Below, in pieces: positions 6,727-64,000 of a DNA stretch of 64,000 nucleotides. Positions within the stretch are counted from its first letter, which is position 1, and every line of letters starts with the position of its first letter. This DNA comes from Leucoraja ocellata (lineage: Eukaryota): contig JAWMAR010000463.1 in assembly GCA_036785375.1 (NCBI GenBank), positions 868,001 through 932,000 on the forward strand. The letters run 5' to 3'. The translations under genes were made by a program, and so were the position numbers. A model generated the notes under the pieces. The model did no database searches. It saw nothing but the letters and a program-made list of their open reading frames with translations, and had not been told where the DNA came from.

Positions 6727-8971
6727 GTAAGGTTGCTCAAAGTTTCTTGACTAAAATGAGTTGCGGTTGAACTTTAATTGAGAAATGCAGGTGTGAGTTA
6801 TATTTTGACCTTTTCAACAATTTCTACAGATGCATGGTAAAAACTTCATAATGGGCATAGATAGGGAAGGTAGATTGGCGTTTTTATGGTGGAATGCCAA
6901 ATACTAGAGCAAATAAATTTAAGCTGAGAGAAAGAAAATTTAACGGAGATTTGCAAGGCAAATTTTTTTTTTTTTTTTGCACCAACTGGTAGGTACCTGG
7001 AACATGCTGATGATGAATGGCAGCAGGTTCACCTTGGGAGTCATTTAAACAGGCACATGTTCTGTACTCCATTTAGACATTGGCGTACCAAACCAAGGGC
7101 AAATTTCTAAACCTTGACATGAATTTACCTATTCCCAAAACTACCATTAGTTATGAATACTCTCTTTTCAACTATATTCATTTGGGTACATTAAATTGTA
7201 GAATCAAGCTAGAACTTTGAATATTTTTTTAATTGGCTTCACGGTCAATCAAGTTGCTGTCAAAATAGAAGATAATAGCAAGCCAGCTAATGAAGCAAAT
7301 TGTGAAAAAATGAAGGTTATGATGCGAGTTAAGCAAGTGGGTGTGACAGAAGTATTAGTGGTGGAAATGTGACATAATACATTTTTTCCAATTAAAATGG
7401 ATAATCGAAGTAAGTTTTCACAACTTGGATGCAGAAAGATCCATGTCCTTGTACAAAAGGTTAACATGTTGGTACAATAAACAAAACTAACAATGTCAGG
7501 ATTTTGTGAGGGGAAATTGGATAGACAGTACATAGTTATGTTTTGCTTCTGGGCTTTGCCAAGGATAGTACAGTATTGGCCTCGAGTAAGAATGTTAATA
7601 TTTTGGAAGTAATTCTACGAAGGTTTTCTACAGTGGTACCTTGCAAGCCTAGTCTGCAATTCTTCGTTCTGCCGAGTCCAGAGTAAGTGAACCCAATTGA
7701 AATATATGGCCCTGAAGGCTATTAACGGGGTGAATGTGAAAAGGGTTTTTTATCTTCCAGAATTATCTGCAACTTGTCATTGTTCAAAGCAACGAATACT
7801 CATTTGAGACTAGTTTGTTTCAATGGTCAACAGTTGATGTACCAGCAGAATTGAAACAAAAGTCAATGTCACTTTTTAAAATTTGCTTAGCATGCTGTAT
7901 ATCCAGTCTATTTTCAGTCGTGTTCCAATGAACTGTATAATTGCTCACCTGGTATTTCCCTAGTGAAGGCATCTGGGACCCTGAAAAGTGGCATGCATCC
8001 TTGTATCCCACTTCTGGCAGAAGTTCACCATTGGATGGAACTAAGAAAGACAATGCTTCAGACCTGGAGAGAGCAGTTCTGAAGCGCAGAATTGCAGGTG
8101 AGTGGTAGAAAGCAATCTGTTAATTTCGAATCTATTTGCAATTTTATGCTTATTTCACTTGGGTCAACTTGATAACATCTTGACTATATGATCAGGTTGG
8201 CTGAGTAATGAATCTTGCATGTTGACCCTTGTTTTATACACAAGAACGCAAAGCAAAAAAAAATATTTGGCCCAGTCAGTTGTGTGCTTTGGCGATTATT
8301 GTCCTGTAATGCACTCTGGTTCCGAGCACCCAACTCGGACAGTAATGCGCTTGTAGCTAATTGTACCAATTCTAATCGTGACGGTGTTGAACCTAGCTTG
8401 CGTGGTTCTTGGTATGAGTACTTCAGAATCTCTGAAGAACTAATGAATTGTTTTTTTTCTTAAAGAAAGGCATAAAGGCAGCCTTTTTCTCAACCTTTTC
8501 TTAAAGACAGCCAGATGTGGGAATAATTGAAGGGTTCAAATATTCCAGTCACTGAAGTCTGAGGTGTTGCTTCCAGCAGTTGTTGACTGCCTTTGTTTCT
8601 TATCAGTGGACTGGGCTTTGGGTGTTCTTAATGGATTTTGTGGTGCTGAAGAACCTGTACATGTCATGGCTATAGGCAAATTACTGGCCTTTTGTACTGT
8701 CCATTATTTGTTCTTTTTTTTGTTTACTGGCACTTTGCCTTTGCTAGTATAAAGCTGTTCCACTTCTCCTTAAGGTGAAAGGATCTTCCATTTTAGGAAT
8801 GCCTATGTTTACAGTTAATAGGCTCCTCTGCATCTTGGTCATTCTTATCACTGTTCTTTTCTGGAAAAAAAACAAGGGTTCTGGGTGCCTTTTATGGCAG
8901 ACCTCCTGGCAACCCGTAAGTTCAGGATGCTGGTACGAGTACTTCAGAAGCTGTGAAGGACTAATGAGCTG

Positions 8972-12000: not shown

Positions 12001-15000
12001 AAGGGCTGAGGCTAACATTTTGTACAAATGAGTATTAAATTGCCCCTTTGTAAGTGGCAATATCAATTTCTGAAGTACTAAAATAAAGGTCTGTGATGTG
12101 AAACATTTATTGATTTGTTCCAATGCTGGAGTCTTCACAGTATTTTCTTGATTCTTGTTTCTATGGTGGTATTTTGTATATTGTATTAATTGCAGGAATC
12201 TAAACAGCACTGACAAAACACAGATTCTATTGCTTAATGCAATAGGAGGACTTTATGAAGATGTTGCAGGTATTTTCCTAGTAAATTTGAGTGTCGAAGT
12301 TGTCTAGGTCTAAGTGTGTAAGTTCAGGGGGTCAAAATTGTTCTGTAGTCCAATTTGTGGTAGTCAAACCTGTATTGCATAAATATGCCCTCCAGACAAA
12401 CTCGCCTATGCTGACCACTGTCTAACTATGTAATTCTACTTTGGGCCTAATATGTCTCTTTCCTATCCAAATGCCTGTTTAAATGCCTTTTTATATATGT
12501 TGTAATCATACCTACTTCCACTTCTGGCAGCCTATTCCAGATAACCACCACCCTCTTGAAAAAGATGCCCCAAGATTTTTTTAAATTCATCTTAAACTTG
12601 AATTTAGTGAATCTCTCCATTGCCTGAATTAAATTCCATCTTCCACTGCTCGACCCAACATGCCAACTGATCTATGTTACTTGGTATTCCTGAGCCTCAA
12701 TCTTTGCTATCTGCACCGATTTTAATTTTGTCTACGAACCTAGGAATCTGATCACATATATTCTCATGCAAGTCATTTTTATACCAATCCCCCAGTAACT
12801 ACATGTTCCATACTTCCAATCAGAAGAGCCACCCAATACCTCCTATCACCAAGCTGATTTTGGATCCATTTAGGCAACGTGTCTGATCCTATATCCTTAA
12901 CCTCTGGGTCAAACCACCATGCAGGATTGTGGCGAGACTTTTAAGTGTACTCCTGCAACTCCAAGACTCAAAGGATTAATTTGATCCCAGCTGCATTCAC
13001 CTCACGTGAGCTTTCTCACTAACCAGACTTTCAATATGCCTCGTCATCAAGGGTTTCCTGCCAGCCTTACACTTCACTACAATGGGAACATGTTGACCCT
13101 GAACTCACCTTCTCTCACTTGTGGGAAGAGTGCAGAGGTTCTCCGATCCAGACAACATCCTAGTGGACTTCAGTTGAGTGGAGAAATTGGATAAGCTGGG
13201 GTTGTTTTTCCTGAAGCCAATGAGACTGAAGGGTGAAGGTACACAAAAATGCTGGAGAAACTCAGCGGGTGCTGCAGCATCTATGGAGCGAAGGAAATGG
13301 GCAATGTTTCGGGCCGAAACGTTGCCCATTTCCTTCGCTCCATAGATGCTACTGCACCCGCTGAGTTTCTCCAGCATTTTTGTGTACCTTAGATTTTCCA
13401 GCATCTGCAGTTCCTTCTTAGAGACTGAAGGGTGACCTGAGAGAAGTGTAAGACTGAGAAATATAGGGTAAATGGTCAAATCATTTTTCCGATATAATGG
13501 ACATCAAATTCAAGGGCATAGGTTTAAAATGATCAGGAGCTTTAAAAGGATTTTGGTGCTATGTTTTTTTCAATGATAGAACATGCTGCCAGAAGTGGAA
13601 TTGGATATAATTGGTATGTTTCAGAGGCATTCAGACAGGCATTTGAATAGAAGGATGCCCTTGCGTAGTCAAGTAAGATTAGTATAGATGAACAAAACAA
13701 GTTGATATGGAGGTCTGGCTGCGTGACTGAGTGCTTGAGTTTATTGTAACTAGAAAGATTACTGTAGAGTCTAAATGACAAAACATTTAAGTAAGTCTGC
13801 ATAATATCAGCTTGCTTACATGCCACCATGAAGCAAACATAAGTCTGAGGAGGAGGGTGTTTTACAGTCCTTCCTGGTTGGTCAAGAGCTTCAGTGAGGT
13901 TAATTGTGGTTGTTGCTAAGCCCTCGAAGCTCGAGGAATGACTATTATACTTGGTTAAGACCTGCAGTGTTGTGCATTTGTACACCTACCATAAGATGTA
14001 GTTAAGTTAGTTGTACTGATTTTTGAGCTGATGGCTTGAGTAGTCAAGCAGACTTATATTTGATAATTTATTGAATGTACTCATTGAAACTTCGAAAATT
14101 TCTAGCGGAGGAGGGAGAGAATCGGAAAGAATATCATTAAATGACTGAATAGCGTCAAAGCTGACTTGCAATTGGAAGCAGGATATATAAATACAATTGC
14201 ACTTAAATGGTGTGATTTTCCATGTTTGGTACTTGTTATCTGCAGTCTTTTGCTGTTATGATAGAGATAGGGTCCTGATTTTGTTGACATTGAATGAAGG
14301 TCAAGCATTAAGAGGCCTTCAATATTATTGAGGAGATCCATATCTAGTATTGGACATGGAATGTGGCTTAGCCACAGGTGATCTAACATAAAGCTGGAAT
14401 TTGGTATTGAATGTATGGGATGAAACCTGCACCTTAATAGCTATTTAATCAAATGTCTTCTTATTCTAGATCCACGAGAGAGAATAAAGGAAGAAGATAT
14501 TTATGTTGTACTCAGTCCTCAGCGCCGAAGCTTTGGTGGTGGCTGTCATGTAACCAATCCATCCAATAGTCGACGATCTGGAAGCCCATTGGAAAATAAA
14601 GAGAATGAAACTGTTCGTGGGTTGGGGTGCCAACGTAGAATTGGCAGCGGGCGAATAATTACATCACGGACCTTTGATCGGGATGGCAGAGAAAAAGACT
14701 TGCGTGACAGAGATCCCAGAGAAGGCAGGGAACGCGACTACAAGGAAAAACGTTTTAGGGTAAGATTTACTCCAGATTCCCCGCACAGTTTGAGGATTCC
14801 CCGCACAGTTTGAGTTTTTTAATGTCTTTCTAAGTGAGACCATCAGTCCCAAAATCCAATTGGCTACACTCAGAACATTGCAGTAGTAGTTTGGTGAGGA
14901 CATGTGGGCACTGGATGAGGGTGTGGAATGTTTTTGGTTGGGCGGATAGAAGGGAAAAATTGCTATTTGACCCCTCTGAAAGTTAACTTAATCAGTGGTT

Positions 15001-18000
15001 GCTGTGCTGAGGAGTTAAACGGCAACATTCTTTAACCTGATGATATTGCACTTAACGGCATCTTTGACTCTGGCAACTTACCACAGTGTTAAATTTAATA
15101 ACATTGCATTATTTTTTGTAGCAGCCATATGACTACATTTACAACTACTGATCTGAACAATTAAGATGTCAGTTTGTCATCATTCTAGGGTATTTGATGT
15201 GCATACTCGAAAGCAGTACATGTTTTGCTTTAAAGATTGCAATTCATTCAAACTTGTTTCTGGAAGTTCTAACACCCAAAGAACAGGATACTGAGTTGGA
15301 TGATCCGCCATGATCATATTGAATGGCGGTGCAGGCTCGAAGGGCCGAATAGCCTACTCCTGCACCTATTTTCTATGTTTCTATGAACATCCTGTTGTAA
15401 TGATAAATACACATTGGGGAGTGAAGCTTTAAATTTTGCATATTTAAGTTTTTCATTTAAGTTTTTCTTCTACCTTTGATCATATACCAAGCACATAACT
15501 TGGGGATGTTGGGGGAACCGTCTGGTTCTTAAACGTGTTGTCTCCCTTTTCTGCAGAGGGAGTATGGTGATGGCAAACGTATTTTTGGTGAGAGAAGGAG
15601 ATATGATTCTTACACTGAAGAGGAGCCAGAATGGTTCTCTGCTGGCCCTACTAGTCAGTCAGAAACTATAGAGCTGACGGGCTTTGATGACAAAGTACTA
15701 TTAGAGGATCCAAGACGGCCAAAGAGATGGAGGAAGCGATCGGAAACCCTTAAAGAAGGTAAGTGATGTTTTCATTGAGAGTTGTGCAGAATTAAATCAC
15801 AGATAATGATAAAGGTATGTTAGTTCCAAGTACTGTAGCAGCATGTAAAATACACTTGGTCGGGTGCATGGATAGGAAAGATTTGAAGGGGTATAAGCTA
15901 ATGGGACTAGCTCGAATGGGACATGATCGGCATGGACAAGTTGGGCCGAAGGACCTGTTTTCTTGTGGTGTTGCTGTATTGCAAAGTCTAGCTGCAGAGA
16001 GGGTTGTTGACTCCGTCCATGAGTTTGATGGACTTGTGTGGAAGGTGACTACAATCAATAAATAGGAGTCTTGTATAGGTGTGTTTATTATCCAAATGTT
16101 CCAGGGCTAAGTGAAGGGATTGATAGATGACATCCATGTGCCTGCTACTGTACCATGCGATTAGTGGTTTTAGGTTCTCTGCAATCTGGTTTTGAGCAAT
16201 ATTAACCTCTTGAAGCACTTATGATCATGAATACCAGAGTCACTGGGTGGTAGTCATTAAGGCACACGACTTTTGTTTTTAATCCCAGTGCCAAAGAAAA
16301 ATAAAGGTTGTATGCCTTAATGATCACCACCCAGTGACTCTGGTATTCACTGTCATGAATGCTTTAAGAGGTTGGTCATATTGCTCACAGACAGTTTGCT
16401 GAGAACCTAGAACCACTAATTGCCTGGCACTCCAGCAGGTAGCAGCAAGTGTGCAGAGGACTGTCTGCCAAAGTCAATCCAAGTGATTGGGGCAGGATGG
16501 GTTGTTTCCAGCAAAACTGTCTCACTACTTTGTTGCCCATTTAAGCATACAAACCTTGCCCCAATCATCGGGTCTGTGGCATTATTCTGGGACACTAGCT
16601 CGGTCAAGAATTCCCTTGGCATCCCTGAAGGCTTTGTGAAGGTCGTACCCAGATTTTTTTCTGCAGGTTTGGATAGTCCTGCTTGATCCCCCGCAAACCT
16701 GAACATCACCCAGGAATGGACCTTGCTGTTCATCCTTGGTTTCCCTTGTTAAACACTATGATTGACTTTGGCACACAGTCCTCTGCACACATACTGATGA
16801 AATCTGACGGCAGTGGCGTCTTCATTTAGGTTAGCCGGAGTCCTTGAATATGGACCAGTAAACTAACTCAAGCAGGATCTCGTCTGTATCCTCAGACCAA
16901 CAATTAACAATTTCTGTTCAGAATCCTCTCCCTTCATATAAACTTCTTTTTGTTGAAGCTGTTCAAAGCATTTTCCAATGTGCCTCTTGAAAGAGCAACC
17001 AAATATCTACTTAAAAGATAGAAATGATTTGAAACACAACGGGGAAATTAAATGATGAAGGAAAAATCTAGTTTATCCAAGAGCAGTCGTCATAGAACGA
17101 GCGGCTTCAAACTGTGTCCATATTCTAGCAACAGATCTGTCCAAGAAAGCAGATTATTTATACCTGTTGAAGGATCAAGAATGGGTTGTGGCTTTTTAAA
17201 AGTGGATACGGTATTGTAAAATTGTCTGATTCTTGATTAGTAAGTGTCAGTCTGGGGAGAAAGCAAGAGAATGGGATTGAGAGGGAAAGGTAAATCAACC
17301 ATGATTGAATGGCGGAATAGACTTGATGAATTGAATGGCCTAATTCTGCTCCTATAACTTATGAATTTATGAACTAGTAACACTAACTTCAATTAAATTA
17401 AGTTGTGCTGATTCTGAACACTGCAGCTAACCACTGTGGCAGTAAAGCGGGTGGCCTAAGACTTCTGAAAAGTGTTCATTGTTTTCTAGGTGTAGAATGC
17501 AATGGTGCTGTTCAAGCGTCAGAGGTATCTACTGTTGCTACATCAGAAGCTGACCAAGAAGTTCCCCAGGAAGCAGTCCTGCCAGAAACCTCTCTGGGAG
17601 ATTTTGACTTCAATGAGTTCTTCAACATGGAAAAAAGTGTACCCGGACTAGCATCGGTTAGTTGGCACTATTGGTGTTGGGATAAAGTGTAATGATCCAC
17701 CAACAGCTAATAGCTGTAGTTGGATTATTATGTTTTCAAAGGGAAGGTAATGATTCACTTGTTTGCTGGTGGTGCACTTCATAAAATCTTCCACTAATCT
17801 TAATCCTCCAGGCATTCATAGCAATTTAAAAACACAAACCGCAAATGCTGGAAACCTGAAACAGCAAATGTTGGCAGTGCATTCAGCAGGTCAAGCAACA
17901 TCTGTGGAAAGAAACAACTCGCATTTCTTGGTCTGATAGACCCAAACCTTTCTCTTTCCAGAGATGCCACCTGAGTCTTTGCAATGTTTTGGTTTCAGCC

Positions 18001-21000: not shown

Positions 21001-24000
21001 GTCTTTTTTTGTGGATGTGTTTTAGTTTGCTCTCCATATTAAACGATGCAAATATGATTGTTTTCTTCCAATAACACACTGTTCAACAATGAATTCCTTT
21101 GGAGGATAGAGCTGAGATTTATTTTTAAATCTTGGATAATATAGAACTGTAAAACATCAATTTAAATTTAATCAATGATATTGGAATAAGCAGCACACGT
21201 TTCAGCATAGAATTTGGGGTAATGCATGAAGTAGAGTGAAATTCGAGTAATGCTTTTGAGTAGCCTAAAACTGAGTAACAAAGCCAAAGCAAATAGGCCC
21301 ATTACTTGAAATATAATTAAAGTATTGAGGATATTGCTAAGATTCGAGGGGCTGAGCTATGGAGGAGGGGAATGGGTGACGTTTCGGATCGAGACCTTTC
21401 TTCATCTGAAGAAGGATCTCGACCCAAAAGTCACCCATTCCTCTCCAGAGATGCTGCCAGTCCCGCTGAGTTACTCCATCTTTTTGTGTCTATGTACTTG
21501 TGAATTCTGTGGCATAAATCCAGTAACCCAGTTCTAATGAGCCAACAGTCAAAAATACTAATAACTAGTATTGCAAATGCTTTGGTTTAGCCTGTGAAAA
21601 GGCATCTCATAAATTAATGTTAACATTTTTTAAAAGAGAACAAATTGGAAATCCAAAACCAACAAATTGCAGGAAAGGCTCAGTAGGTCCAGCAGGATCC
21701 ACAGAGAGAGTCAATGCTGTGTCTGCAACCTTGTGTCAGAAGAGACTTTCCGCCTTGCTGGTTTAAACTGAAGATGGACACAAAAAGCTGGAATAACTCA
21801 GTACGACAGGCAGCATCTCTGGAGAGAAGGAATGGGTGACGTTTCAGACCAAAACGACTCAAAACGTCACCCATTCCTGCTCTCCAGAGATGCTGCCCAT
21901 CCTGCTGAGTTACTCCTGCTTTTTATGTCTATCTTCGGTTTAAACTAGCATCTGTAGTTCCTTCCTACATATAACTACATAGTGGGAGAATGTCTTGGCA
22001 CAACAGCAAATTGCATAACAAAAGTGGTATAGAATAGCATGGCTTCCTTGTGGTAAGCTGCATCTATCTGTAGATGTCTGGATCGTAGTTCTTGATCCTG
22101 ACTGCACAAATATTGGTGTTTAGAAATGGTGCTTATGGGTAACTTGCTCCTACACACGCCAACACTTGACTGTCTCAACCTGACAATGCAGTACCTCCAA
22201 ATAGTATTGAGCAAACTAACTTGTATTTTAAGCTGTTAATGTTGAAGTTCTGAATATGTTTACTAAACCTAACATGTTTTTGGGCTCAGGTTTGGAGCAG
22301 AGGATCCCAACTCCTGTTACGCAGCTTGGAAACTATTTTGCTCCCATTCAATCACGAGACGATAATAAGGAGATTAATAAAAAGGTTGATATTTTAGAAA
22401 TACTGCGGAAAGCAAATGTGGACGTGAAACCACTGCTGTCCAGTCTCACCGCCAACAAGGAGAAACTAAAGGAGAGTTGTATGTATCTTATTTCTACATA
22501 TTCACTGAACTGAATTATGTTATTTAATGCTGTCTTGAAGTTTTTTGTTTTTTTCAGTAACTGCTCTTCATGCAGTTTGGTAGTTTATAAATTTGGCAGG
22601 TTAATTAGCCACTCTAAACTACCCTAGTATGTAGGCAAATTGGAGAATATGAGTTGATGGAAATGTGGGTAGGATACAAATTTTGTGTTTGAAGGTCGGT
22701 ACAAGCCACAAGGCTAAAGGGTCTGTTTTCATACTATCTGACTGACTCTGGTTTGTAAGTAGCTATTAGCCATGTTATCATCTCTTTGATTGCATGAGCG
22801 TCTTGTACATGGATACATATAGTTAATTTAGTGCTTGTCAGTCGGCAGTATCAGTAATAATGAAGCTACTGTCAAAGGGATTTAATAACACTTAAAGGTG
22901 TTTGTTCCGGTTTTACCTGCACCCACAACTGTTTCAAGTAGCTATCTACATTTCACCAACCAAAATGTTTCATTTATCATAAAGCTTATTGATATATCCA
23001 CATTTTAGTCATATAAACAAGCATATCACAAAAATTCAGTGCATGTTTGAAGTTCTTTGAGTTAGAACATCAAAAAGTGCATCAATTGCCCAGTTTGTAA
23101 CTGGATTGTCTAAATTGCTACAATTATTAATGGGTTGTTTCCAGATACAGTATAAACATATTTTGTTCTCTGCTTTGCAGCTCAGACTGGAGTGGTTTTG
23201 TCTGTCGAAGAGGTGGAAGCAGAACTGAAAGGTCTCAAAATGGAATCCGAGAGAAAACTTGCCACCCCTTTCATGGTGGAACATCTGGAACAGACTTTAA
23301 CTGCATCATCTGGTCCTAAACACATACAAAAAAAAGACACTGATATGACTGCTTTCAATAAACTAGTTAACAGTATGAAGGCAAGTGGAACCTTGCCTTC
23401 ACAGTCAAAACCCACTGTAAGTAGAAATTTGACTGCTGATTCAAGTCATAGACTTGAGCACTGTCTTCATAATGGTTTGTGTATTTTCTAGTTAGTGCTT
23501 AGTGATGGGCATAATGACTAATAACTTATTGTAAATTGATGTAAAAGTTTAATGTCCAAAAATGTGCAAGCCCTGACTTTGGGCTAGGTCATCTCTTTTA
23601 AATTAAGTTCCTGTCTGTCTCATAACCTGGCATTCTCACAGGTCTTGTTTGGTATTTGATCTGATGCTTGCTTTGTGTTGGAAAAATTGAGCAACATTAT
23701 GTAATGTATTAATCAAACGCATTCTTATCTATCCTTTTAACTAGAGCATAAGTAACCCAACAGGAAATGCAATCTTTTCATTTGGAAACTTTTGAAAACA
23801 AATTACACAGAAGCAGTTTTCCTATGGCCCACCTGATGTATTCATTCAAGATGTGAATTTCTTCGGAAAGCTTACTATTAATTTGCTCTTGCTAGTTGTT
23901 CCCTGCACGGTTGGGGACAATTGTAGCTTTATTTTATACGTAATTTGGATAAGTGACCTTAATGTTTTTGCTCTGTACCCAAAGATGTGTGGGTGCTAGT

Positions 24001-30000: not shown

Positions 30001-33000
30001 CTCCATAATTTAAGATTTGCAATAGAAAAAAAATCACATGTGGTTAAAGTGCACATTGTCAGATTTTAATAAAGGTCATTTTTATACATTTTCACATGAT
30101 ATTGCTGTGTCCCAAACATTATGGTGCCCTGAAATGGTACCATGTATAAATACTGCTGTGATTTCTACATGGTGAAACCAAAATGTATAAAAATAGCTTT
30201 TATTAAAATCTGGCAATGTGCACTTTAACCACATGTGATTTAAAAAATAAATTAAAAAAAATTCTATTACAAATCACAAATTGTGGAGTACAGAGACAAA
30301 TAAATAAATGATGGTTCTTTGTCCCAAACATTATGGAGGGCACTGTAGATAGATGAATAAACTATTTCTATTGGCACAAGGCACATGAACCAAAATTGAC
30401 ATTGAACGTTTCTGTATACCCATACTCAAGATGTGGAACACAGTGCCAAGTATGTTGTGGAAATTGATTCAATACTGATGGTCAAACGGATTGGTGTCCA
30501 GAGTAAAGAATTTGCTGGGTGCCTTATGGACTGAGTAGGCAGCTTCCATGCTGTAACTGTTCTGTGACTTGGTCATGTATAATGTAGAAACCCAAAGAAA
30601 TATCTGCAATGTTAAATTGTAAACTTCATCTTTGCATTTGCAGGCCATTTGTCACCAGGTTCTCAACAGGAAAACTCAAACAGAGGGACATCTCCTATTG
30701 GAGGGACAAGGTCAACATATCATAGATCTGCATGTACAACTCCTCAGTTAAACCAGATGCGATTCACTAAAGACCAAGACTATAGACCCAGGTCCACAGG
30801 AAGGAAAACTCCCTCGGGGGCCTCTCCTGTTCCCGGGTCTTCCTTTCCTCGACCTATTTGTCCTCTATCCCTTGTGTCACATGTACCCCTTGTGCGTCAG
30901 TCGCCCCCTCACTTGCCTCCAGGGGTAGTTCAGAGGATGCTGGCACAAGGCATTACACCTCAGCAGCTACAACCAGCATTGCTTCATGCAGGTGAGTGCA
31001 GAGCACTTTAATATTTTAACCCGGGAACATGGCTATAGTTTTAAGTTTAAGAGGGAGTACTTTGTCTTTTCCTTTCATCCTTACCAAAGATGGAGATTTT
31101 TTTTAAATGATCTTGAATTGGTTTCTGATGGAAGCAGGTTGGCTCTGTACCTGCTATGTGTTGAAGTAAATACTTTCTATGAATCTAAAAGGAAGTCATC
31201 CGATTGACCCAAATGTAAACCAGAAGGTGAACCCTTCCTAACTCCATCAAAAGACAGTGCTGGAGTAACTCAGCAGGTCGAGCAGAATCTCTGTTTAGTT
31301 TATCATCTGTAGTGAAGTACAGTAATAAGTTTTTGTTTGCATGCTATCCTTTTTTCTGCCCATCAACTCGACCCTGATTTTCCTGCAGCAGAGGCAATTT
31401 CCAGTTAACAATTTACCAGCACATATTTTGAAATGTGGGAGGAAACCATTGTGCCCAAGAAAATCCATGTAGTCGGAAGCTGCATTTTAATTTACTCTCG
31501 TAGCTAGGGCGCTCTAAGTGCAAGCATGTTTATGCTTTGCTACAATTAAAATCTAACCAGCATCTTGCCACTGGCACTTTCTATCAGGTTCTTTAGAAGT
31601 ACATGGTTTGGTGAATAGCTGTAGGATGCAGCTGGAATGGACTTTGTACTAACTTCATTTAAGATTATGAAAAAACTTTGCACACAACTTTGCTTTCTAC
31701 CTCTTTTAGAAAAGTTAATGACTTGGCCAAATTTACTGTGTCAGTACAGTTGTGTAGTTTTGTCTGCAGTTTGACATTGCATGTCACAGGATAAGATGTC
31801 TAACTACTTAACTGTCAGAATTTGAGTAAGGATGCATTTCAAAAAGATTGCTCTTGTGTACCTTTCACAACCTCTGAACATGTTGTGCAGTTACCAAATA
31901 ATTGTATTATGCTGGGGCTTCCAACAGCACTGCTTTCCCGCAATACGGTATGGAACTGCCAATCAAGATTTTGCTCTCACTTCAGAAGCAAAGCCATTGA
32001 TTTCTGACTTGGGAGAATGCTGTCACAGCATCAAAGCTGGCCGCATGACTTATCTGACCACAAGCTAGGAGGTGTCCCTCAAAGGTGGGGGGAAAAGTCA
32101 CACTAGCATACAGAAATAAGAAGCTGAGCATGACTGCAGAGCATGTTGATCCTTGGTGCATGAGTTGCTACTGTTTTCTGTTCTTAAAATTTGTGCTGTA
32201 ATTCTCAGAACTGGCCCTCTCAGAATATTCAGGGTTCCTTGCTATTTGGGGATTGGTTTGAGTACTTTGGAGTGTGGAAGATCAGATTTTTAAAACTTTT
32301 TTTAAAAATTGCATTTTAATTTGTCCATTAATCCAAAACTGTACTTTTTAAGCTGGTGAATGATCAGTCAACATATAAAGGACTAACCTTCAGAATGCTG
32401 CTTATTATTTCCGCTTTTGTAAAACATTATGAAAAGACCCTTGTATATCGTGCTCTATACAAGGACTGCAAACGGCTCAGAAATATACAGTCTATAAACT
32501 ATTTGTCTCTGTGGCAGGTATGTTTCAGTCAGGCATGGATCTGTCACATTTGCAGACCCTCCCTCCAACTCTCCTTGGGCAGACTTTCTATCCTCTTCCA
32601 GCAAGTGGACTCCCTTTGTTGAACCCTCGAGCTGCAATCTCTGCAGTACAGATTCAGGCATCTGGAACACCTCTACAACACCTGGCCATGATAAGACAAG
32701 GTAATGTTCAATTTGCATTTGACAAATCTTTCAAATGTTAAAATCAATCTTATTGTCAGCAAATTTGGCTTTTCCCCCCCGATGCTGATGGAAGCTTATG
32801 ACTTGACAGGAAGGCTAATATTGGTTCAGTTTTATTGTGGTATATGACAACTTGCCTGTCCACTGAGGAAGGTGGGGAAAGTAGTAATTACTATTGGCTA
32901 CTAATCCAGAATCCTGTACATTTGACCCAGACGAGTTTGAATTTGACTAAAGTGGCAGGTTATTTAAATTCAAGTAATTCATACCATTTTGAGCTGAAGC

Positions 33001-40248: not shown

Positions 40249-43200
40249 AATCAGTGCGTGGATTAGTCATCCATAATTAATTATGACCCTTACTGTCTAT
40301 ATTCTAATTGCCCAATTATGGCATTCTGAACATTACCACTACTGTTTGTTTCTGTACAACTCGTACAACTGTTAATTGCCTTGATATCTGAACTGACACA
40401 AATATCTACTAATTCCATAAACCACATCATTACACTTGGTGTTTCAGACTCCTGACTACATTTTGATTTTGAAGGAAATTGGGTATGCTGCAAGTGATCC
40501 AAATATTTAATCTAAAATTTTAACTAGAACATATTATAAATCTGTTTCTATTGCTTTCACCAGTCTCAGTATACTGGTCATGATCTGCAAGTTGAGTTGG
40601 GTAGAGCTAGGGTATTTAGTGAGAAGCTCACAATGGAGGCTTCTATGTATACTATTCCCAAACTAACAATTTTAAGTGTCCCTCAGACATTTAACTGAAT
40701 TGTCAAGGCCATGTCCAATATCAAAAATGACTAGCAAGATTCTTGAGCTAACAAAGTGCTGGGGGAACTCAGCACATCAGGCAATAGACAGACAATATTT
40801 CAGATCAAAAGGGTCTCGACCCGAAATGTCACCCATTCCTTCTCCCCAGAGCTGACAAATGCCTGTCCCGCTGAGATACTCCAGCGTTTTGTGTCTATCT
40901 TCAGTTTAAACCAGCATCTGCAGTTCCTTCTTACACATTTCAGATTAGGAACCGTATTCAGGCTTCAGTGAAACTCTGCTGAATTTCAATACGGTCACAT
41001 CTTAAACTTAGAAAAGCTTGTGTTACACTATTTCTTCGATATTTTGCAATTTAAGGCAGAAATCGGCACTTTCAATCCTGCCTCGTCCAAGGCTTGCTTC
41101 ATGTTTTCAGCAATTCCTCTTCCACTGGGGTCTCAGATAACTTAAGTGCCTTTACTCATCAAATGTCCATTTAATCCTTTCTAAATCTTTTTGCAGTTGG
41201 ACTTAACACATCCAACTTTTAACCAATAGTCTGTATGAAGGATGTTGGTTTAAACCTTAGATAGACACAAAAAGCTGGAGTAACTCCGGGGTTGAGCAAC
41301 ATCTCTGGAGAAAATGTATAGGTGACATTTTGGGTCGAGACTCTTCTAAAGACTTCACCTATTCCTTTTCTCCAGAGATGCTGCCTGATCCATTGAGTTG
41401 CTTTTTAATCAATGGGATTTTTTTTCTTTCAAAATTATTTTCATGGGTATGCTTTCTTTGAGCATTCCAAATCAATGCATCAAATGAAAGAAGAAATTTG
41501 AGCCAATATTCTTTCATGGGTTCTGAAACAATACCTTCATGGGTTGAAATTATGTTACAAGTTTGAAGTATGTTTTTAGGCAAGGCAAGGATGGTGATAA
41601 TCACATGAGCCATTGGCAAACCACATAGAAGTGATCAAAAATCTACAGCAAAGGAAAAATCTAAATAGTTATCTCACTTCTGCTATTCCACTGCAGGTCG
41701 CATTCATTTATTTTGTGAAAGGCACTATAAAAATCCACACATCCTTTCTGTGTGTATTCTATATCAAATTGTTTCTCTACTCAACCCAAAAAATAAGTTT
41801 AATTGGTTTTGCTAATAGAATGTTTATCAATTACAATTAGTTCTGCTGCTCTGCTCTAACAATCTTATTTTCAGTTTCAAAATGTCCCCACCCCCCCCCC
41901 CCTGACCTTCCGGCAAACCCCATTCATAATTGCACCCAACCAAATTACATTGTAACCACATTTATTTCTGTAGTTGGATGCAATGTCATCTGGAGCCTAA
42001 CCTGCGATTAAAGTCAAGCACAATTGTGCTGTATTCAAGCTCTGTGCCTCCAAATCCCTTTAATAAAAATTATCTTAATTGCAGTGAACTTCCTTAGATG
42101 ATATCTTTGCCACAGGGTCAGTACTAGAAACACCCAAATGGCCACACAACTCAACAGCAGTAGGGACATGAATGCACCAGAGAGCAGGTGAAACTGTTTC
42201 ACCATAAAGTGCTGCTGGACTATTTCTAGATAAACTGGTTTGTTGATGTCAATGCTACTGAAATTGTTATCACTTGTTTTGACTACACTTAAAAGGTGTT
42301 CTGGGCAGTATTGCTGTCTTACAGCACCAGAGGCCTGGGTTAAGATTCTGACTTTGTGTGCTGTTGGTACGGAGTCTGTATGTTGCTCCAATTTCCTCCC
42401 ACACTCCAAAGATCACATTCTAAACAATTAAATGTCTCATACAATTCTAAACTCAGTTGCACACAAATTTAATTACGTCAAATTAATGGATCTGATTGTC
42501 TCTCTTTAGTTATTTATTTCCTGGAACGCTAGAGAGAATTACTTTTTGCATGGTTTTCAATAGCCTGATAGCTAGCTCTGAGATGAGTACAAGGACTAGA
42601 ATATTTTTTTGTGAAAAATACACTCCATACCATCTTGGTACAGTTTGAAATGTGTGTCTGTATGAAAATCTGCACCAAAACAGTGCTGCTTGACACACTT
42701 TCTCTTCTTCCCCCCCCCCCCCCCCCCCCCCCCCCTTACACGTGGCAGATTAACAGGGTTGGTTTCTTTAGAGCACTCGCATGAATACCAGCGACAGCAG
42801 TTAATCCATGTGCATATTGGGGAAGATGACTAATTAAATGATAAATTGTACAGAAAAGTCAGGGTTATTGACACTTTTGTGCAGCAATTTTGACACTCCT
42901 AATCATACGAGGAAAAATATGTTCAAGATGCCACTTTGCTCTTCAATAAACCCCTGTACATTGGGAGAGCAACCCGAATCTTAATTTCAATTAGTAGTGT
43001 ATTTGACCATCTCTTTGCAAGATGTTATAGAAGCAATATTATTGCTACTTATTGTAATACTGTCAAAACGCTAGGTACAGTTAATATTCCATTCTAGTAC
43101 TCAGTTGCAATGTTCCAATAGTCTTTTAATGGATGAATTGTACAATTGCATTGGAAAAAGTCTTTTGTTTCCACGTGTAACCATTTTGGATGAAACACTG

Positions 43201-43424: not shown

Positions 43425-46400
43425 CTGCAACAGGAAAAAAAAACTAATTACCAAAAGCACTTCCTGACACATTCGGCATGTTGCATCTCGCATTTTATAT
43501 CAAACACCTTGACTATGATCACAATTGAAGAAGGATTACTTACTATTTGAATTCCTTAATTAGGTTTTTATGAATTTTCATGCAGAAATCCTCAACTGCA
43601 GTTTTCCTATGTGGTAGCACAACAGGGGAAGTGTAATCAGGTAACTGCCCCTTGGGTTTTGTGTAACTGCAACAATAACATTTCAAACCATTTATCATCA
43701 TCGCATACCAACAGTAAAAACAAACTATGTGAATCAGTCATCACTCAAAATGTTACCTACATGCGAACGAGTTGCAAGTAGTCCCACAACCTTTCCAGGA
43801 GATCATCAAAGTTCCAACGGTGATGTGCAGAAATTGGTACGCAGTGTGGTATTTTATAAATTACATCCAGTTCCTCCAAAGAGATCTGATCTATTTTGTT
43901 CAGAACATAAATGCATGGCATGTACACCCTGAAGTGGAGAAAACAGGACTTTGAGTCTGCGCATTAGTCCAGCCAAGGCTTGCCAACGCTCATATTATGC
44001 AGGCATGGAATTACTTAAGCTAAAATATCATACAAGTATATTTTTTAAAAATTATAAAATGACTATTACAATTCTGGATGTTCAGTTAATGGCTTACAAT
44101 CTTTTATAATATATATATACTGCACAAAGTAATACAAGGATGAACAAAAAATAAAGTGAGAATGGATTATAAATTGGAAAATCTTACATGACTAAAATTA
44201 TGGAAGATTTAAGTATTAGAGGGAGCAGTGAATGAAAATATGAAAAATAATTATATCCAGATTTTCAATCAATGAGACAAATGAATAAGTTCAGAGAATG
44301 CACAGCCGGGAAACACATGGCAGAATGGATTGAGAATAAAAGTAAAGTGTAAGAGTAAAATGCATTTATTTGTAAAGATGATGTGTTCCACAGCTCTTCA
44401 CATTTACATTAACGATCTGGAATCAAGAATAAATTGTCAAAATTTACAGATTATACAAATTAGGGGCTTGGAAATAAGAATGCCAACAAATTACTAGTGG
44501 ATTGAATTGCTCCAACAAACCAAAGACGTACTTATTGGTAAATTAATTGGCCAATGTGCGTTATCCCTACTGCAGGTGAGTGCACTGTGCACCCTAAATT
44601 CAGTTCAAAATATTATAGGATGGATATGCAGGCATTAGTGAGGGCCCAGGAAAGGTTTACAAAAATCATCCCTGGGATAGACTAGAGAGGTTATAGCTGT
44701 TTTTTTTCAAAAAGGCTTAGCGTAAATTTGTTAGAAGGACACAACATGATGAGAGATCTGGGCAATGTGGATAGTGAGACAATTACCCTTTAATCTTTCA
44801 GCAATCAGGTAAACGACCCACTGACAAAAATCAGTGTGTCTCTATGGGAGATGAACATTTTAAGATGGGTTAACAATGCATTCTGAAACTCGAATATTAA
44901 TAAGCATTATGAGATCAAAGACTCCATCCCCTACTCCAAATTCCTCCGCCTACGCCGCATCTGCTCCCAGGAAGAGACGTTCCACACCAGGGCATCGGAA
45001 ATGTCCTCGTTCTTCAGGGAATGGGGATTCCCCTCCACCACCATAGATGAGGCTCGCACCAGGGTCTCATCCATATCCCGCAACACTGCTCTCTCTCCCC
45101 ATCCCCGCACTCGCAACAAGGGCCAGCCGGCAAATACAACAAATAATCCTCCGCCATTTCCGCCACCTCCAACGTGACCCCACCACTCGCCACATCTTCC
45201 CATCTCCCCCTATGTCTGCCTTCCGCAAAGACCGCTCCCTCCGCAACTCAATTGTCAATTCTTCCCTTCCCTCCTGTACCACCCCCCTCCCCGGGCACTT
45301 TCCGTTGCAACCGCAAGAAATGCAACACCTGTCCCTTCACCTCCCCCCTCGACTCCATTCAATGACCCAAGCAGTCGTTCCAGGTGCGACAAAGGTTCAC
45401 CTGTATCTCCTCCAACCTCATCTACTGCATCCGCTGCTCTAGATGTCAGCTGATTTACATCGGGGAGACTAAGCGGAGGTTGGGCGATCGTTTCGACGAA
45501 CACCTCCGCTCAGTCCGCAATAACCTACCTGAACTCCCGGTGGCTCAGCATTTCAACTCCCCCTCCCATTCCCAATCCGACCTCTCTGTCCTGGGTCTCC
45601 TCCATTGCCAGAGTGAGCAACACCGGAAATTGGAGGAACAGCACCTCATATTCCGCCTGGGTTGCTTGTGTCCGGATGGCATGAACGTTGAATTCTCCCA
45701 GTTTTGCTAGCCCTTGCTGTCTCCTCCCCTTCCTTAACCCTCGAGCTGTCTCCTCCCATCCCCCTGCCCTCGGGCTCCTCCTCCTCCCTTTTTCCTTCCT
45801 TCTCCCCACCCCCCATCAGTCTGAAGAAGGGTTTTGGCCCAAAACGTTGCCTATTTCCTTCGCTCCATAGATGCTGCTGCACCCGCTGAGTTTCTCCAGC
45901 ATTTTTGTGTACCTTCGATCTTCCAGCATCTGCAGTTCCTTCTTGAACACTGAGATCAATGCTTTATTGGGTTAGAAGCCCAAATACGTCAGAAAATAGG
46001 AGCAGGCCATCTGGCCTCTCAAGGTTGTTTCGCATTCAATATAATCTGTCCCAGGCCTCAACTCCGATGCCAGTTCTCCATTGTCCTCAATTCACCAGTG
46101 TCTAAAAATGCATCTATCTCCTATTTAAATAACTCTGGTGATACCCCAACATTGGGGTAGAGATTTCCACAAATTCACCCCTCTCCACAAGAAGAAATTC
46201 CTTGCAGTAATTTTTACACGATGGCCCCTGTTCTCATTCAACAATGTCTCGTCATTCAAGATCCTCCTTTTAGAGGCATCATCTCAACATCTACCCGGTC
46301 AGTCTCCCTCCGGGTCTCATATGTTTCAATATGATAGTCACTCATTCTTCTAAACTCCAAAGAATACTCATCTAACACTTATAATCATTCATGATAGAAC

Positions 46401-49400: not shown

Positions 49401-52400
49401 ACAATTTAACTCTATCTACAGTTACCCATCTGAGTTTCCACATCATACCTGTATCTTGGCTCCTTTATAGCGAATCACCCCTGGTACCGTGGTCAAAGTA
49501 GTAAACTCATAGGCCGCAACTTCAGAATACACTCCTGCCAGATTACTTAGTAATGTAGATTTTCCAACAGAAGGGAAACCCACAAACCCAATCCGGGCAT
49601 CCCCAGTCTTGGCAACATCAAACCCTAGCACCAACAAGAGATATAGAGGAAAAACAATCATCAATAAATTCACACTGGCATAATATTTAGTGAATATTAT
49701 AAAAGCACTTTTTTTTTAAATTTGGCATATGCAATTTGGCTAATCACCTGTCCTTGACATTCAATTACATTATTGCAAAGTACCATGCTATCAACACCTC
49801 ATGGTCACCAATAACCAGAAAATTAACAGACTAGCCATGCATTTACTGTGGCTACTAGAGGGTTAGATGCTGGGTAACCTGCAGCAAGTGACTCGCCTTC
49901 TGACGCCAAAGCCATGAATTATCCACAAGAAACAGGTCAGAAGCATAATGAAATACACCTGCATCAGTGCAGCATTCACAACAGTCAAGAACCATAACAC
50001 CATCCAGGACAAAGCAACTAAACTGATTGACACCTTATCCTGCCTAAAAAAATAATTCCACAATCATAGTGCAAGTGACTGCAAGGTGTACCAGCTTCAA
50101 TGTGCTCTTTAGTTACTTGGCTAAGCTGCTCTGACTGCATCTCCAAACTCTCAACCGCTACCACTAAAAAAGGAGAATGTTTTCATAGGAACAGTTGCAC
50201 CTGTAGAATCCCTTCTAAGGCACATTGCCTCCTGACTCGGAAATATATTGCCGTTCCTTCTTCATCACTGGCTCTAAATCTTGGAACCTAAATCAACTGC
50301 ACCAAGTGTATCTTCACCCGAAGGACTGTTGTGATTCGAGGTGGACGCTCACCACCACCTTCTCAATAGCAATTAGGCAATAAATGCAGGCTTTATCAAC
50401 AGTATCCAGATGCTTAAAAAATGAATAATCACATAGAAATATTAATGTTTACAAACACACCATCCTGGATCCAACGGAACACCTTTCTGTGGTACCTTCG
50501 CCACTGACATTATCAATGTTATTCCAATTACACTATAATGTTTCCTATTTCCAGCACTAATTCCATAATCACCTCATGCCTTTGCTTAAAAACTTATATT
50601 TACCGATGTATTATACTTATATATTCCAGCTGCCAGTATGCAGCTACTCCCAGGGTACGTTCTGGGCTTGAAGATCTGTTGCAAGTTCCGGGGAGCCACG
50701 TGCATGATGGGAGTGTCCTGGGGGAGCAGGCCCGATCCACCCGCCGAACAACCGCGCCGCCGATGACCCGAACGTGCCCCGGTAGGCCCAACGCGCCCCA
50801 CAGGACTTCCAGGGGACTGCAGAGAAGCCGGACGGCGAGGCCTGTCTGGGCCGAAGGAGCCTCAGCGGTGATGGGAGCCTCGGCGGCAGCGGGAGCCTCG
50901 CGATCAGTGGTCGATGAGCACGAGGGGGGGGAGGGAAGACAATGGGGACCCGGCGTGAGGGGGACCGCTGTGAGAGAACAGACCCAGTGTGGGGCGGGGG
51001 ACTCTAGTTTTAGAACCCTCTGCCCAGGGGATAAGTCTCTGTGTGTTTGTTTGTTTGTTCCGGTTAAGGCGCTGTGCACACGGCAGCCAGCCAGCCAACA
51101 GTCTTTTTTCTCACTTTTAATTTAATTTTAATTTCACGTTTTCATATACCTTGTGTGTTGTGACTGTTGGCAGACCAATTTCCCTCCAGGGATGAATAAA
51201 GTTTTATTGTATCGTATCATAAGTTCAGCACATGTTTGTTAATGGGCCTTTCACACGCCAGCATTGAAACAGCAACCCCATTCACTTTAATAGAGATTCC
51301 TAACCTCAAACACTTTCTCAATTATATTTTATTTGAATGTTTTAATTAATTTCAAAAATTTTAATGTGCTTCAACAACTATGTTTTAAAAAATTCCAAGT
51401 AAACCATTTGAAGCAATGTTAATATATCCATGGCATTTGAAAAGTGATACGAAACTCATTACATTGTGCCACATGTGAAGGGTCTGATCATTCAGCAAAG
51501 TCATGGCCAGCTTGATCCAATCAATTTATTTTCTTCATAAGGTGAACATAAGAGACTGCAGATATTGGAATCAAGAGCAAAAATATAAACTGCTGGGTGA
51601 AGCAGTATTGGTGGTGGCAAAGAGATGATCGATGTTTCAGGGGGTGTCTTGTGAAATATCAACTATCACATGCTGCTTAATGTGCCGTGTTCTTCCTGTT
51701 TTTTATATTTTAGTTAGTCTCCTTTATCACTGCCCTTGCAGAGGCGAACTGGCTCACTCAACTCCAACAAATGGATTACAAGATCCCCGCCTTGCCTTTG
51801 ACTACCTGCAGGGTCCCATTCCACCTCATACGATCATTAACGTCTAGTCCACTATTTGTCATAGATCCAGCAAACACTATACCGCTATCATCGCTGTATT
51901 TACTATTTTTAAAAATACTTCCCAACACCATTCTCTCTAATTAGAGTATCCTGCTCATCCTGCAAAGCATGGAGATTAGTACTTTGAACAATACATAACA
52001 GCTTTGAAAGCATTCATCTTCACACATCTGGGCAAAATCAATATTGTGGCTATCCCAAATTTCAACAAATAAGACAGCAAATAACATTCGTCATTTTAGA
52101 CATTCTAATACAAATCCAGTACCTTCACCAGGTCCTCCTCCACCTCCTCCTTTGGGAGTGATAAGTTCTCGGCGTAGTTTGGCCAGACGGGCTTTCAACA
52201 GACCCAAGTGGTGAGCCGTTGCTTTGTTTTTCTGTGTCCTGGCCATCTGATCAAAAAACCAAGGAAGAGGTTTATAGAACCATTGCATGGTATTGTGTGT
52301 TTATAGTTACCAATATATCCCGACACAGATCAATAATGATGGCTGTACAGTCATTACTACTGACACTGAAAATACTTGGATAACTACAAGTCAATGCCAT

Positions 52401-55779: not shown

Positions 55780-56480
55780 TGAAAAAACAATTTCCAACTG
55801 CTGTGCTGAAGAAGAAATGATCACAGTGGTCCTTAAAATATAAAGATTGGGGAGTGGAGAAAGGTGTTATTCTGAGACAAAAGCATTTAATTCAGGGCCA
55901 TGTTAGTCGACATGTTCGGAGAGTCAGTGAGAAAATGCCAAATTAACCAAATCATCAAAAACCTGAAAAGATAATCTTCCGGGGTTGTTTCATCTTCTAC
56001 AGTGTTGGTCCACTGCACCCATTTGATTAAATGATGAAACCCCTACAATATATCGAAGTATTGCAGAGAAGAGTGGTGCTAGAGACAGCAAAGACTTTTC
56101 CAGATGACTATGGGATATTCCAGCAAGACCTGACACATCAATGGTGTTTTTCTAGTTTTTCTAGCAGAAGGGGATAGAAAAACTGGGTCACCATCATTGA
56201 CGTGTATGGTCTTGCTGGAATATCCTATATACATCTGGAAAAGTCTTTGCTATCTCTAGCACTACTCTTCTCTTGGACTGGTCCAGTAACTCATCTGACC
56301 TGAATTTGATTCAGAATCTGTGATCAATTATCAAAGAGAGACTGAAAGGAAAGAACGGTACTACAAGCTCATCAAGACCATAATTTAGCTGTTGTGTTGA
56401 AATGAAAAAATCCTTGGAAACTCATCAGTTCCATGCCAAATCATGTCAAAGACTTGACAAAGAACTGTAATTGACATATA
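55780..56480 (+). mobile_element. Highly decayed Tc1-like transposase fragment with internal inversion
   Basis: Remnants resembling FQQD (ttccagcaagac) and W..NSSDLNLIQNL (NSPDLNPIENL-like). Confidence 0.55.
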
Positions 56481-57369: not shown

Positions 57370-58646
57370 TGGTTCCATTGATTATCCTTAAGATGTTTCT
57401 ACAACTTGATTGGAGTCCACCAGTGGTAAATTAAATAGATTGTACATGATTTGGAAAGGCACACTCCTGTCTATATAAGGTCCCGCAGTTGACAGTGCAT
57501 GTCAGAGCAAAAATCAAGCCATGAAGACAAAGGAATTGTCTGCAATTTCTGCAGCAGTGCAGGTCCCAAAGAGCACAATGGTCTCCCTCATTCTAAAATG
57601 GAAGACCTTTGAAACCACCAGGATTCTTCATAGAGCTGACCGCCCAGCCAAACTGAGCAATCGGGGGAGAAGGGCCTTGGTCAGGGAGATGACAGCTGCA
57701 GAGTTCCTCTATGGAGATGGGAGAACCTTCCAGAAGGACAACTATATCTGCAGCACTCCACCAATCAGGCCTTTATGGTAGAGTGGCCAGACAGAAGTCA
57801 CTCCTCAGTAAAAGGCACATGACAGCCCACGTGAAGTTTGCCAAAAAGCACCTAAACAAGAATATCTGGTCTGATGAAACCAAGAGTGAACTCTTTGATT
57901 GAATGCCAAGTGTCATGTCTGGAGGAAACCAGGCACCATTCATCACCTGGCCAATACCATACCTACGGTGAAGCATGGTGGTGGCAGCATCATGCTGTGG
58001 GGATGTTTTTTCAGCAGCAGGAACTGGGAGACTAGTCAAGATCGAGGGAATGATGAAAGGAGCAAAGTACAGAGAGATTATTGATGAAAACCTGCTCCAG
58101 AGCGTTCAGGACCTCAGACTGGAGCAGAGGCTCACCTTCCAACGGGACAACGACCCTAAGCACACAGCCAACACGACGCAGGAGTGGCTTCACGACAAGT
58201 CTATGAATGTCCTTGAGTGGCCCAGCCAGAGCCCTGACTTGAACCCGATCAAATATCTCTGGAGGGACCTGAAAATAGCTGTGCATCGACACTCCCCATC
58301 TAACCTGACAGAGTTTGAGGATCAGCAGAGGAGAATGGGAGAAATTACCCAAATACTGGGGTGCCAAGTTTGTAGCGTCATACCCAAGAAGACTTGAAGC
58401 TGTAATCTCTGCCAAAGCCGCCTCAGCAAAGTACAAGGTCTGAATACTTATGTAAATGTATATTTCATTCATTTATTTTTAACTACCTTGCAAAAATTTC
58501 TAAACACCTGTTTTTGCTTTTGTATTATGGGGTATTGTGTGTAGATTGATGACAAAAAATAAAAAAAAGAATCAATTTTAGAATAAGCTGTAACGTAACA
58601 AAATGTGGAAAAGGTGAAGGAGTCTGAATATTTTCTGAATGCAATG
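57370..58646 (+). mobile_element. Tc1-family transposon, frameshifted DD34E transposase, right TIR retained
   Basis: [39 protein letters not shown]; terminus ...gtctgaatattttctgaatgcaatg|TA. Confidence 0.9.
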
Positions 58647-62510: not shown

Positions 62511-63150
62511 CCCAGGCCCCCGGGAGGGGTCGCAGTTGACAGGAAGCGCCGCGCTGCCATGTTGCCGAGCCTCCCGCGGCGCCAGGGCCCGGCGGCTGTG
62601 AGGGGAACAAAAGCAGCGCGGAGCGCACCCCGGCCTTCGCTACGCGGCCTTCCCTCGCTCGGCTCGGCGGCAGGCGGAGCTTTGCACCGCGCGCTCCTTT
62701 TCAAATCCACCTGGTTTTAAACCGTGTTGTTCAGAGGCGGAGTTTGAGGGGGGGCCGGTTTTTCCCCCCGGTCGCGGCTCCCAGTCGGCGGCGATGGAAA
62801 GGGCTGCCGAGCCGTCCTGGAACAGCTACACCTACCAGGTGAGCCAGCACAGCGCCGACATGTTGAAGAAACTCAACGGGCAGAGGAAGAACGGCGGCCG
62901 CTTCTGCGATGTGGTGCTGCGGGTGGGCGATGAGAGCTTCCCGGCTCACAAGGCCGTGCTGGCCGCCTGTAGCGACTACTTCGAGTCGGTGTTCGGCGCG
63001 ATGGTGGACGAGGCCCAAGGCCGCGAGCTGGAGATGCACACCATCAGCGCCAAGGTCTTCAGGGACATCCTGGACTTCGCCTACACCTCCCGCATCGTGG
63101 TGAGACTGGAGAGCTTCCCCGAGCTCATGACGGCCGCCAAGTTTCTGCTC
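62380..63150. promoter_or_regulatory. CpG-island promoter / 5' region of PATZ1 (ETS-like CAGGAAG 62540-62546; YY1-like GCTGCCATGTTG 62553-62564)
   Basis: CpG-rich stretch just before and within PATZ1 exon 1. Confidence 0.65.
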
Positions 63151-63998: not shown

Positions 63999-64000
63999 GT

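Follow-up and report, generated by a model that had tools for sequence, protein, structure and literature searches.

The hairpin at 13222-13435 of the window (the whole 64,000-nucleotide stretch of DNA analysed here) is probably a single dead-end insertion of a Penelope-like element (PLE), in which a tailed and a tailless arm were made by two RT reactions from both strands of a staggered cut and then became joined through microhomology at a palindrome that the element itself carries. The fold point is likely set by DNA base-pairing at this palindrome, which lies within a ribozyme motif, rather than by ribozyme cutting. The architecture, an inverted truncated pLTR with a tail, a TSD and a junction palindrome, is already published, and the window locus is an ordinary dead insertion, one among thousands of PLE stub insertions. 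The value of the analysis lies in statistics that separate integration models and in a GNA loop without explanation.

The hairpin is the near-perfect inverted repeat of a PLE terminus, with its own 15-bp TSD, that an earlier note on this DNA had described (Table 1). Its arms (13236-13312 and 13314-13390) are 77 nt each and 96% complementary about an axis at 13313, and both are 94% identical to the terminus of the PLE at 44919-45950. The axis does lie at GTTTCG-GGC-CGAAAC, as that note had placed it, but it is not the axis of stem II; the palindrome straddles the loop, the 3' strand of stem II and GAAAC. Read towards the tail arm, the loop of the hairpin is in the reversed orientation. Both arms stop at element position 10 (on the element scale, 0 is the C of CUGAAGA, C3 of CUGANGA, at window 45821). 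The hairpin is without CUGAAGA and therefore cannot itself be a ribozyme. With the cleavage site placed by the min-HHR numbering in the available text of PMC4209133, the predicted cleavage position maps to 13323/13324, ten bases within the right arm. An Rfam scan of the window at E<=1 returned no hammerhead, and the only sub-threshold matches were miRNA-like ones owing to the hairpin shape. Exon frames on both sides support an intronic position in EIF4E-T (+ strand), as judged from sequence. A predicted RNA fold of -162 kcal/mol (z -19 against 200 shuffles) agrees with the suggestion that the hairpin could form dsRNA in this intron. No empty site was seen in relatives; flank contigs of four organisms enter both hairpin ends, so that the insertion appears to be shared.

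Table 1. Coordinates of the hairpin, its parent element, related fold-backs and flanking exons
Feature	Window position	Strand	Element position	Remarks
Left TSD	13222..13236	+		15 bp, GAGACTGAAGGGTGA
Left arm, tailless pLTR stump	13237..13312	-	~18-96	points outward
Junction palindrome	13306..13320	strandless		GTTTCG-GGC-CGAAAC; axis 17 = window 13313
Right arm, pLTR stump	13314..13390	+
PLE tail	13391..13420	+		30 bp, on one arm only
Right TSD	13421..13435	+		15 bp, GAGACTGAAGGGTGA
EIF4E-T upstream exon frame	~7964-8097	+		WDPEKW motif
EIF4E-T exon downstream of hairpin	14470..14760	+		end approximate; PF10477 E 4.9e-13
Older-family fold-back	21350..21490	strandless		both arms reach ~-1/+1
Older-family fold-back	21756..21970	strandless		joined at ~15-19 with short insertion
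Older-family asymmetric fold-back	41240..41410	strandless		-3 joined to ~+26
PLE of the hairpin's family	44919..45950	+		5'-truncated, frame-broken; C-terminal ORF part, pLTR, tail
GIY-YIG endonuclease frame	45366..45707	+		PF01541 E 4e-5
Minimal hammerhead motif	45819..45851	+		CUGAAGA 45821-45827, stem II, predicted cut 45848/45849
Stem II			8-19	axis 13.5
Palindrome GTTTCG-NNN-CGAAAC			10-24	15 nt, axis 17
Helix III palindrome AACGTT			22-27	axis 24.5
Predicted hammerhead cut			27/28

The Penelope origin and the minimal-hammerhead motif claimed in the earlier note were both borne out. The PLE at 44919-45950 is flanked by its own 9-bp TSD (44910-44918 and 45951-45959) and carries a CX4CxxC linker motif (CNRKKCNTC) just upstream of its GIY-YIG frame. 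A longer relative (L101) has a single 486-aa frame in which RT (RVT_1, E 5e-5, below the curated cut-off) is followed by a C-terminal GIY-YIG domain (E 0.003). Such an ORF, together with partial pLTR tandems and an inverted 5'-truncated copy, an optional 30-40-bp tail at one end and a variable TSD, is what defines EN+ PLEs, and all of these were found. In the available text of PMC8557442, a CX2-5CxxC linker before EN defines Neptune/Nematis, to which the linker would assign the present element, unlike Poseidon. Minimal type I hammerheads are described in metazoan PLE pLTRs in the available text of PMC4209133. As in those, the family pLTR would form a hammerhead with CUGANGA, an extra base before stem II, a G-C first pair of stem II, GAAA, a palindromic C-G/AACGUU helix III, UH and possibly a short helix I. 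This putative helix I consists of 2 bp and, beyond a 2x2 gap, 2 bp more, against the 4-5 bp of the descriptor; that of the D. virilis PLE is given there as 2 bp. The genome holds 28,237 exact matches to the intact core with a GCC loop. Unlike the hammerheads of that account, the hairpin lacks CUGAAGA and the long window copy lacks G12, its GAAA having decayed to AAAA.

The family was sampled as the first 100 listed places of an arm 39-mer with their surrounding DNA; the 39-mer has 68,877 exact matches in the 3.44-Gb genome used for copy counts. Among the places listed are 89 de-duplicated elements, 70 single and 19 paired, and two of the 19 are unrelated neighbours, leaving 17 true pairs. At the 3' side, family copies end at one of two fixed points, near 94 or near 129 (90-98 or 124-135). 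At the other end, 31 of the 70 listed singles begin between -7 and +3 (mode -2), 26 are longer and 13 begin between +6 and +41; two copies continuing into the ORF also start at -2 and 0. The template RNA would thus begin at the front edge of the hammerhead, as far as sequence can tell. Since most copies stop at this edge, probably the RNA 5' end, junctions come to lie near the hammerhead.

Several further features of the element were seen. Around the front edge (window 45780-45820) there is an initiator look-alike (TCAGT) and also a polypyrimidine tract with CAG, a splice-acceptor look-alike. We take TCAGT to resemble the initiator consensus. A donor look-alike, AAG/GTATG, lies ~40 nt past the tail in longer copies. 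Drosophila Penelope is described as having an internal initiator promoter and a 5' intron in the available text of PMC2377424. In an RNA fold of L045, the tail pairs with the arm (AGAUGCUG/CAGCAUCU, element positions 48-55 / 105-112), bracketing the first 3' end, with z -0.5. In L093:5680-5850, L233, L237, L238, L244, L250 and L259, a pLTR and 70-150 nt of ORF start are fused to a second pLTR. These short partial tandems join mostly at -5..-2 and once at +28; they reflect either template jumps or internal deletions, and the resulting units are of retrozyme size. An older-family non-autonomous unit of ~330 bp (L129:1640-1990) has its ORF start joined to the ORF end and pLTR.

Close inverted pairs, counted over anchor gaps of 10-100, total 16,024 (1,576 at 10-40, 9,858 at 41-70 and 4,590 at 71-100); wider inverted pairs exist too. 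Many loci of G000:C1 0.2-2.9 Mb and of many other contigs occur twice with 1-3% divergence, being segmental duplicates or uncollapsed haplotypes, so raw counts are inflated, and the junction listings contain some duplicated loci. Hotspot sizes are extrapolated from by-eye reading of the first 50 listed places per gap class on contigs C1-C5. Breakpoints are not spread uniformly along the terminus but cluster over the motif, as the earlier note had expected. Their frequency tracks palindrome length (7, 4, 3, 1 and 1 pairs a side, with an axis scan for 17 and 24.5). Axis 17, with 7 pairs a side, accounts for 21 joins among the 50 matches listed of 9,858 (~4,100 by extrapolation, of 16,024 close pairs). 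Next come axis -1 (TCAG-T-CTGA, 4 pairs a side; 12 among the 50 listed of 4,590, ~1,100) and the AACGTT of helix III (3 pairs a side; ~9 among the 50 listed of 1,576, ~280). A single pair a side is offered by TA at 31 (3-4 joins among the matches listed) and by the GC at the cleavage site (2 among the 50 listed of 1,576, ~60). The palindrome GTTTCG-NNN-CGAAAC is already present in the non-inverted element. In the older family, stem II reads GGGTCTCGACCC and the best palindrome is that of stem II at axis 13.5; by eye, among 50 listed of 3,445, ~5 join at 13.5 and none clearly at 17, while in ~29 one of the arms extends as far as the front edge. The hotspot shifts with the palindrome between families, and the older family, without this palindrome, has no axis-17 hotspot. 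The three other fold-backs of the window, said to invert at or next to the same motif, are real but belong to this older family and join elsewhere, as read by eye from alignments (Table 1). Asymmetric junctions show 1-6 nt microhomologies or templated inserts, and 5 of 18 asymmetric pairs underlie a putative pause at 16-18.

The clustering over the motif, together with its fit to the min-HHR descriptor and two of 13 short singles whose end lies at +28, where they begin, is what could be said for the proposal that ribozyme function, by cleavage or through the dimer interface, sets the switch point. We consider this quite improbable. The predicted cleavage site lies 10.5 nt downstream of the axis-17 hotspot; both arms keep 11-18 nt upstream of the site, the dominant junction requires uncut RNA, and symmetric junctions at the site are ~60 against ~4,100 at the palindrome. 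No peak of arm ends was seen at the cut among the 100 matches listed of 2,517 for positions 24-33: read by eye, the counts from 24 to 33 are 11, 7, 7, 3, 12, 10, 6, 17, 13 and 14, and several of the 12 arms ending at +28 are duplicates or internal deletions. Dimer-interface switching fares no better, with helix III AACGTT junctions at <2% of close pairs. In addition, the hotspot moves with the palindrome between families, and the 10-24 pairing competes with the active fold. RNA dimerisation may nevertheless bring two templates together, or stem II may act as a pause site.

The two arms of a pair differ in their ends. In 164 de-duplicated close pairs, about half of whose loci were picked by a tail-containing query, one tail is present in 161, none in 3 and two in 0; in the anchor-only sample, all 17 true pairs have exactly one. 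In 99 of 109 pairs, vs 15 of 108 controls, the unit as a whole lies between TSD copies; TSDs are ~8-21 bp long with unrelated sequences between insertions. L001-L030 were left out of the orientation, discordance and age counts because they had been picked for likeness to the window hairpin, and the orientation/discordance and CpG/age counts use 76 of 84 hairpins, the other 8 having a second arm that is short or complex. Read towards the tail, the loop is native in 39 and reversed in 34 of these 76 full hairpins; a by-eye reading of 100 places listed of 3,039 exact cases gave 52:45:3 for loop orientation. The reversed loop is found in 19 of 31 hairpins with at most one arm difference. A reversed loop together with a tail, as in the window hairpin, could not be made by one self-copying cDNA. 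The G/C site 88 is discordant between arms in 8 of 74 hairpins, where 36.8 would be expected for independent draws and other G/C sites show 0.25%; this excess over background indicates that two templates are sometimes used. Variants mirrored across arms number 112 vs 28.5 by shuffling, and subfamily variants are mostly common to both arms; a single source locus or a single tandem RNA would account for this, but so would self-copying. CpG decay is one-armed in 14 cases and mirrored in 1, so later arm homogenisation is rare. Of the asymmetric pairs, 22 have the longer 5' reach on the tailless arm and 15 on the tailed arm.

These counts bear on self-priming, which the available text of PMC3846280 proposes as the cause of junction palindromes in rotifer EN+ PLEs: a strand would snap back at the palindrome and copy itself, and later flips would randomise the loop. 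The high concordance of the arms and the ability of the cDNA to form a 6-bp hairpin are in its favour, as are the few hairpins whose second arm is short (~6 of 84), 5 of which carry the native-type loop that snap-back would give. As a general account it is unlikely, since about half of the copies, the least diverged included, combine a reversed loop with a tail, the arms are discordant at subfamily sites, and the mostly one-armed CpG decay shows later arm conversion to be rare. Compared with self-priming as set out there, our orientation and discordance data favour two cDNAs.

The loops of the hairpins carry a signature of their own. Among the places listed, 45 of 100 loops have a junction-specific C>A that gives a GNA triloop on one strand, vs ~1% in non-inverted copies. 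GNA triloops are unusually stable. By eye, the 100 listed comprise 34 GGA/TCC and 11 GCA/TGC (by script, 32 and 8 of 99), each change replacing C by A at the third base of the loop on one strand; the TGA/TCA double change occurs in 0 of the 100, with 9 expected if the two were independent. TCC as a native subfamily was rejected, as non-inverted copies hold TCC 278 times vs GCC 28,237 times, on mixed haplotypes. Assembly error is unlikely to lie behind the odd loops, given that 13 of 14 diverged duplicate pairs have the same loop; one pair changed its loop after duplication (GCC vs GCA). The loop substitution is new and so far without explanation. It is absent from the available accounts in PMC3846280 and PMC8557442, and no paper on GNA loops at retroelement junctions was found in the literature available to the search.

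The near-absence of these loop types from non-inverted copies, and a very uniform 184-bp anatomy across thousands of copies, might suggest the MITE-like non-autonomous family of the earlier note, here taken to mean whole units copied from few masters, some with TCC/GGA or GCA loops. This reading is very unlikely. TCC/GGA lies on at least 8 arm haplotypes that also carry GCC/GGC, and several of those haplotype variants are found in non-inverted copies as well. Where hairpins share an arm-asymmetric variant, it lies on the same arm in 73 cases vs 85 on the opposite arm, and 1 pair shares two. Every common loop occurs in both orientations, asymmetric junctions form a continuum, and a transposase-type TIR/TSD signature is lacking. 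Across 76-84 hairpins, master descent, as shared asymmetric variants and a fixed internal orientation, was not found; a small subset of hairpins may be unit-copied. The family resembles MITEs in its hairpin shape and non-LTR retrozymes (available text of PMC8969392 and 10.64898/2026.07.22.740005) in being short, non-coding, high-copy and derived from the ribozyme region of a PLE. It differs from these in that it shows no sign of a unit-copied master, is not tandem, has no intact ribozyme and has unequal arms. In retrozymes the units stand in tandem and every one has a complete type I hammerhead; here a single inverted unit without the core is found.

The loops also speak to when the inversion arose. 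A later origin, in which template switching at replication or repair of a cruciform altered the inserted copy, would be compatible with the duplicate pair that differs (GCC vs GCA) and with the fewer one-arm differences of GNA hairpins (0.9% vs 1.3-1.6%, p=0.035). It is highly improbable for the inversion and odd loops as a whole: the TSD encloses the entire unit, in 8 of 9 duplicate pairs that have a GNA loop both members carry it despite 1-3% flank divergence, and the double change expected of independent events is missing. We therefore think there is a good chance that the GNA loop arises at or near insertion, and post-insertion loop mutation contributes as well. The age comparison for GNA loops gave 18/31 vs 17/45 (tail clock p=0.54), and inspection of asymmetric junctions gave no clear support for a non-templated A at other junctions. 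Two loci, L016 and L022 (G000:C171), have a common tailless-side flank and differ in tail-side flank and loop orientation, which suggests rearrangement through the hairpin.

One tail per pair, both loop orientations, discordant arms and the in-vitro result on the anole PLE make dual priming the simplest reading. Both target strands would prime cDNA, usually on RNA from one source. The two 3' ends (~94 and ~129) would correspond to a pair of RT start sites like those of the anole PLE in vitro; the -2 edge would be the RNA 5' end. Two identical cDNA strands may then anneal with 7 bp on each side of a single G.G mismatch, which could be resolved either way. GNA loops might arise if, as the strands are joined, an A is set opposite the first loop G; resolution of a GGA/CGG heteroduplex with one such A would yield exactly GGA, GCA, GGC or GCC. 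The hammerhead, which would make up the template's first 30 nt, would matter for its location and might also be a pause structure, but would not be a cutter. Against dual priming stand the few hairpins with a short second arm and the finding that the arms almost always use different ends, a pairing rule that lacks explanation. More tentatively, and with rather less confidence than in the two-reaction origin, we put forward an unrecognised PLE step: one complex may prime both strands, one per RT start, and the cDNAs may be sealed via a mismatched heteroduplex, with an A opposite the first loop G leading to the GNA triloop in nearly half of the junctions and the hammerhead serving as a structured front edge, not a cutter. 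In L1 twin priming, both target strands prime, and the inverted halves are joined by microhomology within one TSD; L1 inverts different parts of one RNA, whereas here the same segment is used twice.

Dual priming has a biochemical counterpart. For Poseidon of Anolis carolinensis, the available text of PMC11167929 reports that the PLE protein cuts and extends both strands in vitro, that synthesis starts at two sites bounding the tail, that the start site does not differ between strands and that ribozyme mutants insert normally. Likewise, the two 3' ends here bound the tail ~90-130 nt downstream of the hammerhead, in an element of the Neptune/Nematis linker type. The joining of two cDNAs is not addressed in that text, and no paper on dual-cDNA joining in PLEs was found in the literature available to the search. 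EN+ PLE insertions are described with an inverted 5'-truncated pLTR, a 30-40-bp tail and a TSD, and Pen2a_Av with a 15-bp overlap at the inverted junction, in the available text of PMC3846280 and PMC8557442. The window hairpin family shares the head-to-head inverted pLTR, the one-sided tail, the TSD and the junction palindrome or overlap; unlike the EN+ PLEs of those accounts, both of its arms are <130 bp and its copies number in the thousands.

How PLE integration is finished, how inverted ends arise and what role the minimal hammerhead plays are the questions that these statistics address. With ~16,000 close inverted pairs from a single genome, dual priming can be told apart from the published self-priming model, and the close-pair data argue against in-vivo cleavage shaping these insertions. 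One tail per pair, a palindrome-set junction, mixed arms and the GNA loop are predictions testable in the existing in-vitro PLE assay.

The remainder of the window holds further features. The inverted-repeat elements at 56065-56273, 16204-16373 and 30031-30241 are unrelated to the PLE end and probably derived from DNA transposons. A Tc1/Sleeping Beauty-type remnant lies at 57479-58394 (+), a GTPase exon (MMR_HSR1) at 49446-49715 (-) and a BTB-zinc-finger gene at 62602-63999 (+). The gene order of the window resembles EIF4ENIF1-DRG1-PATZ1.
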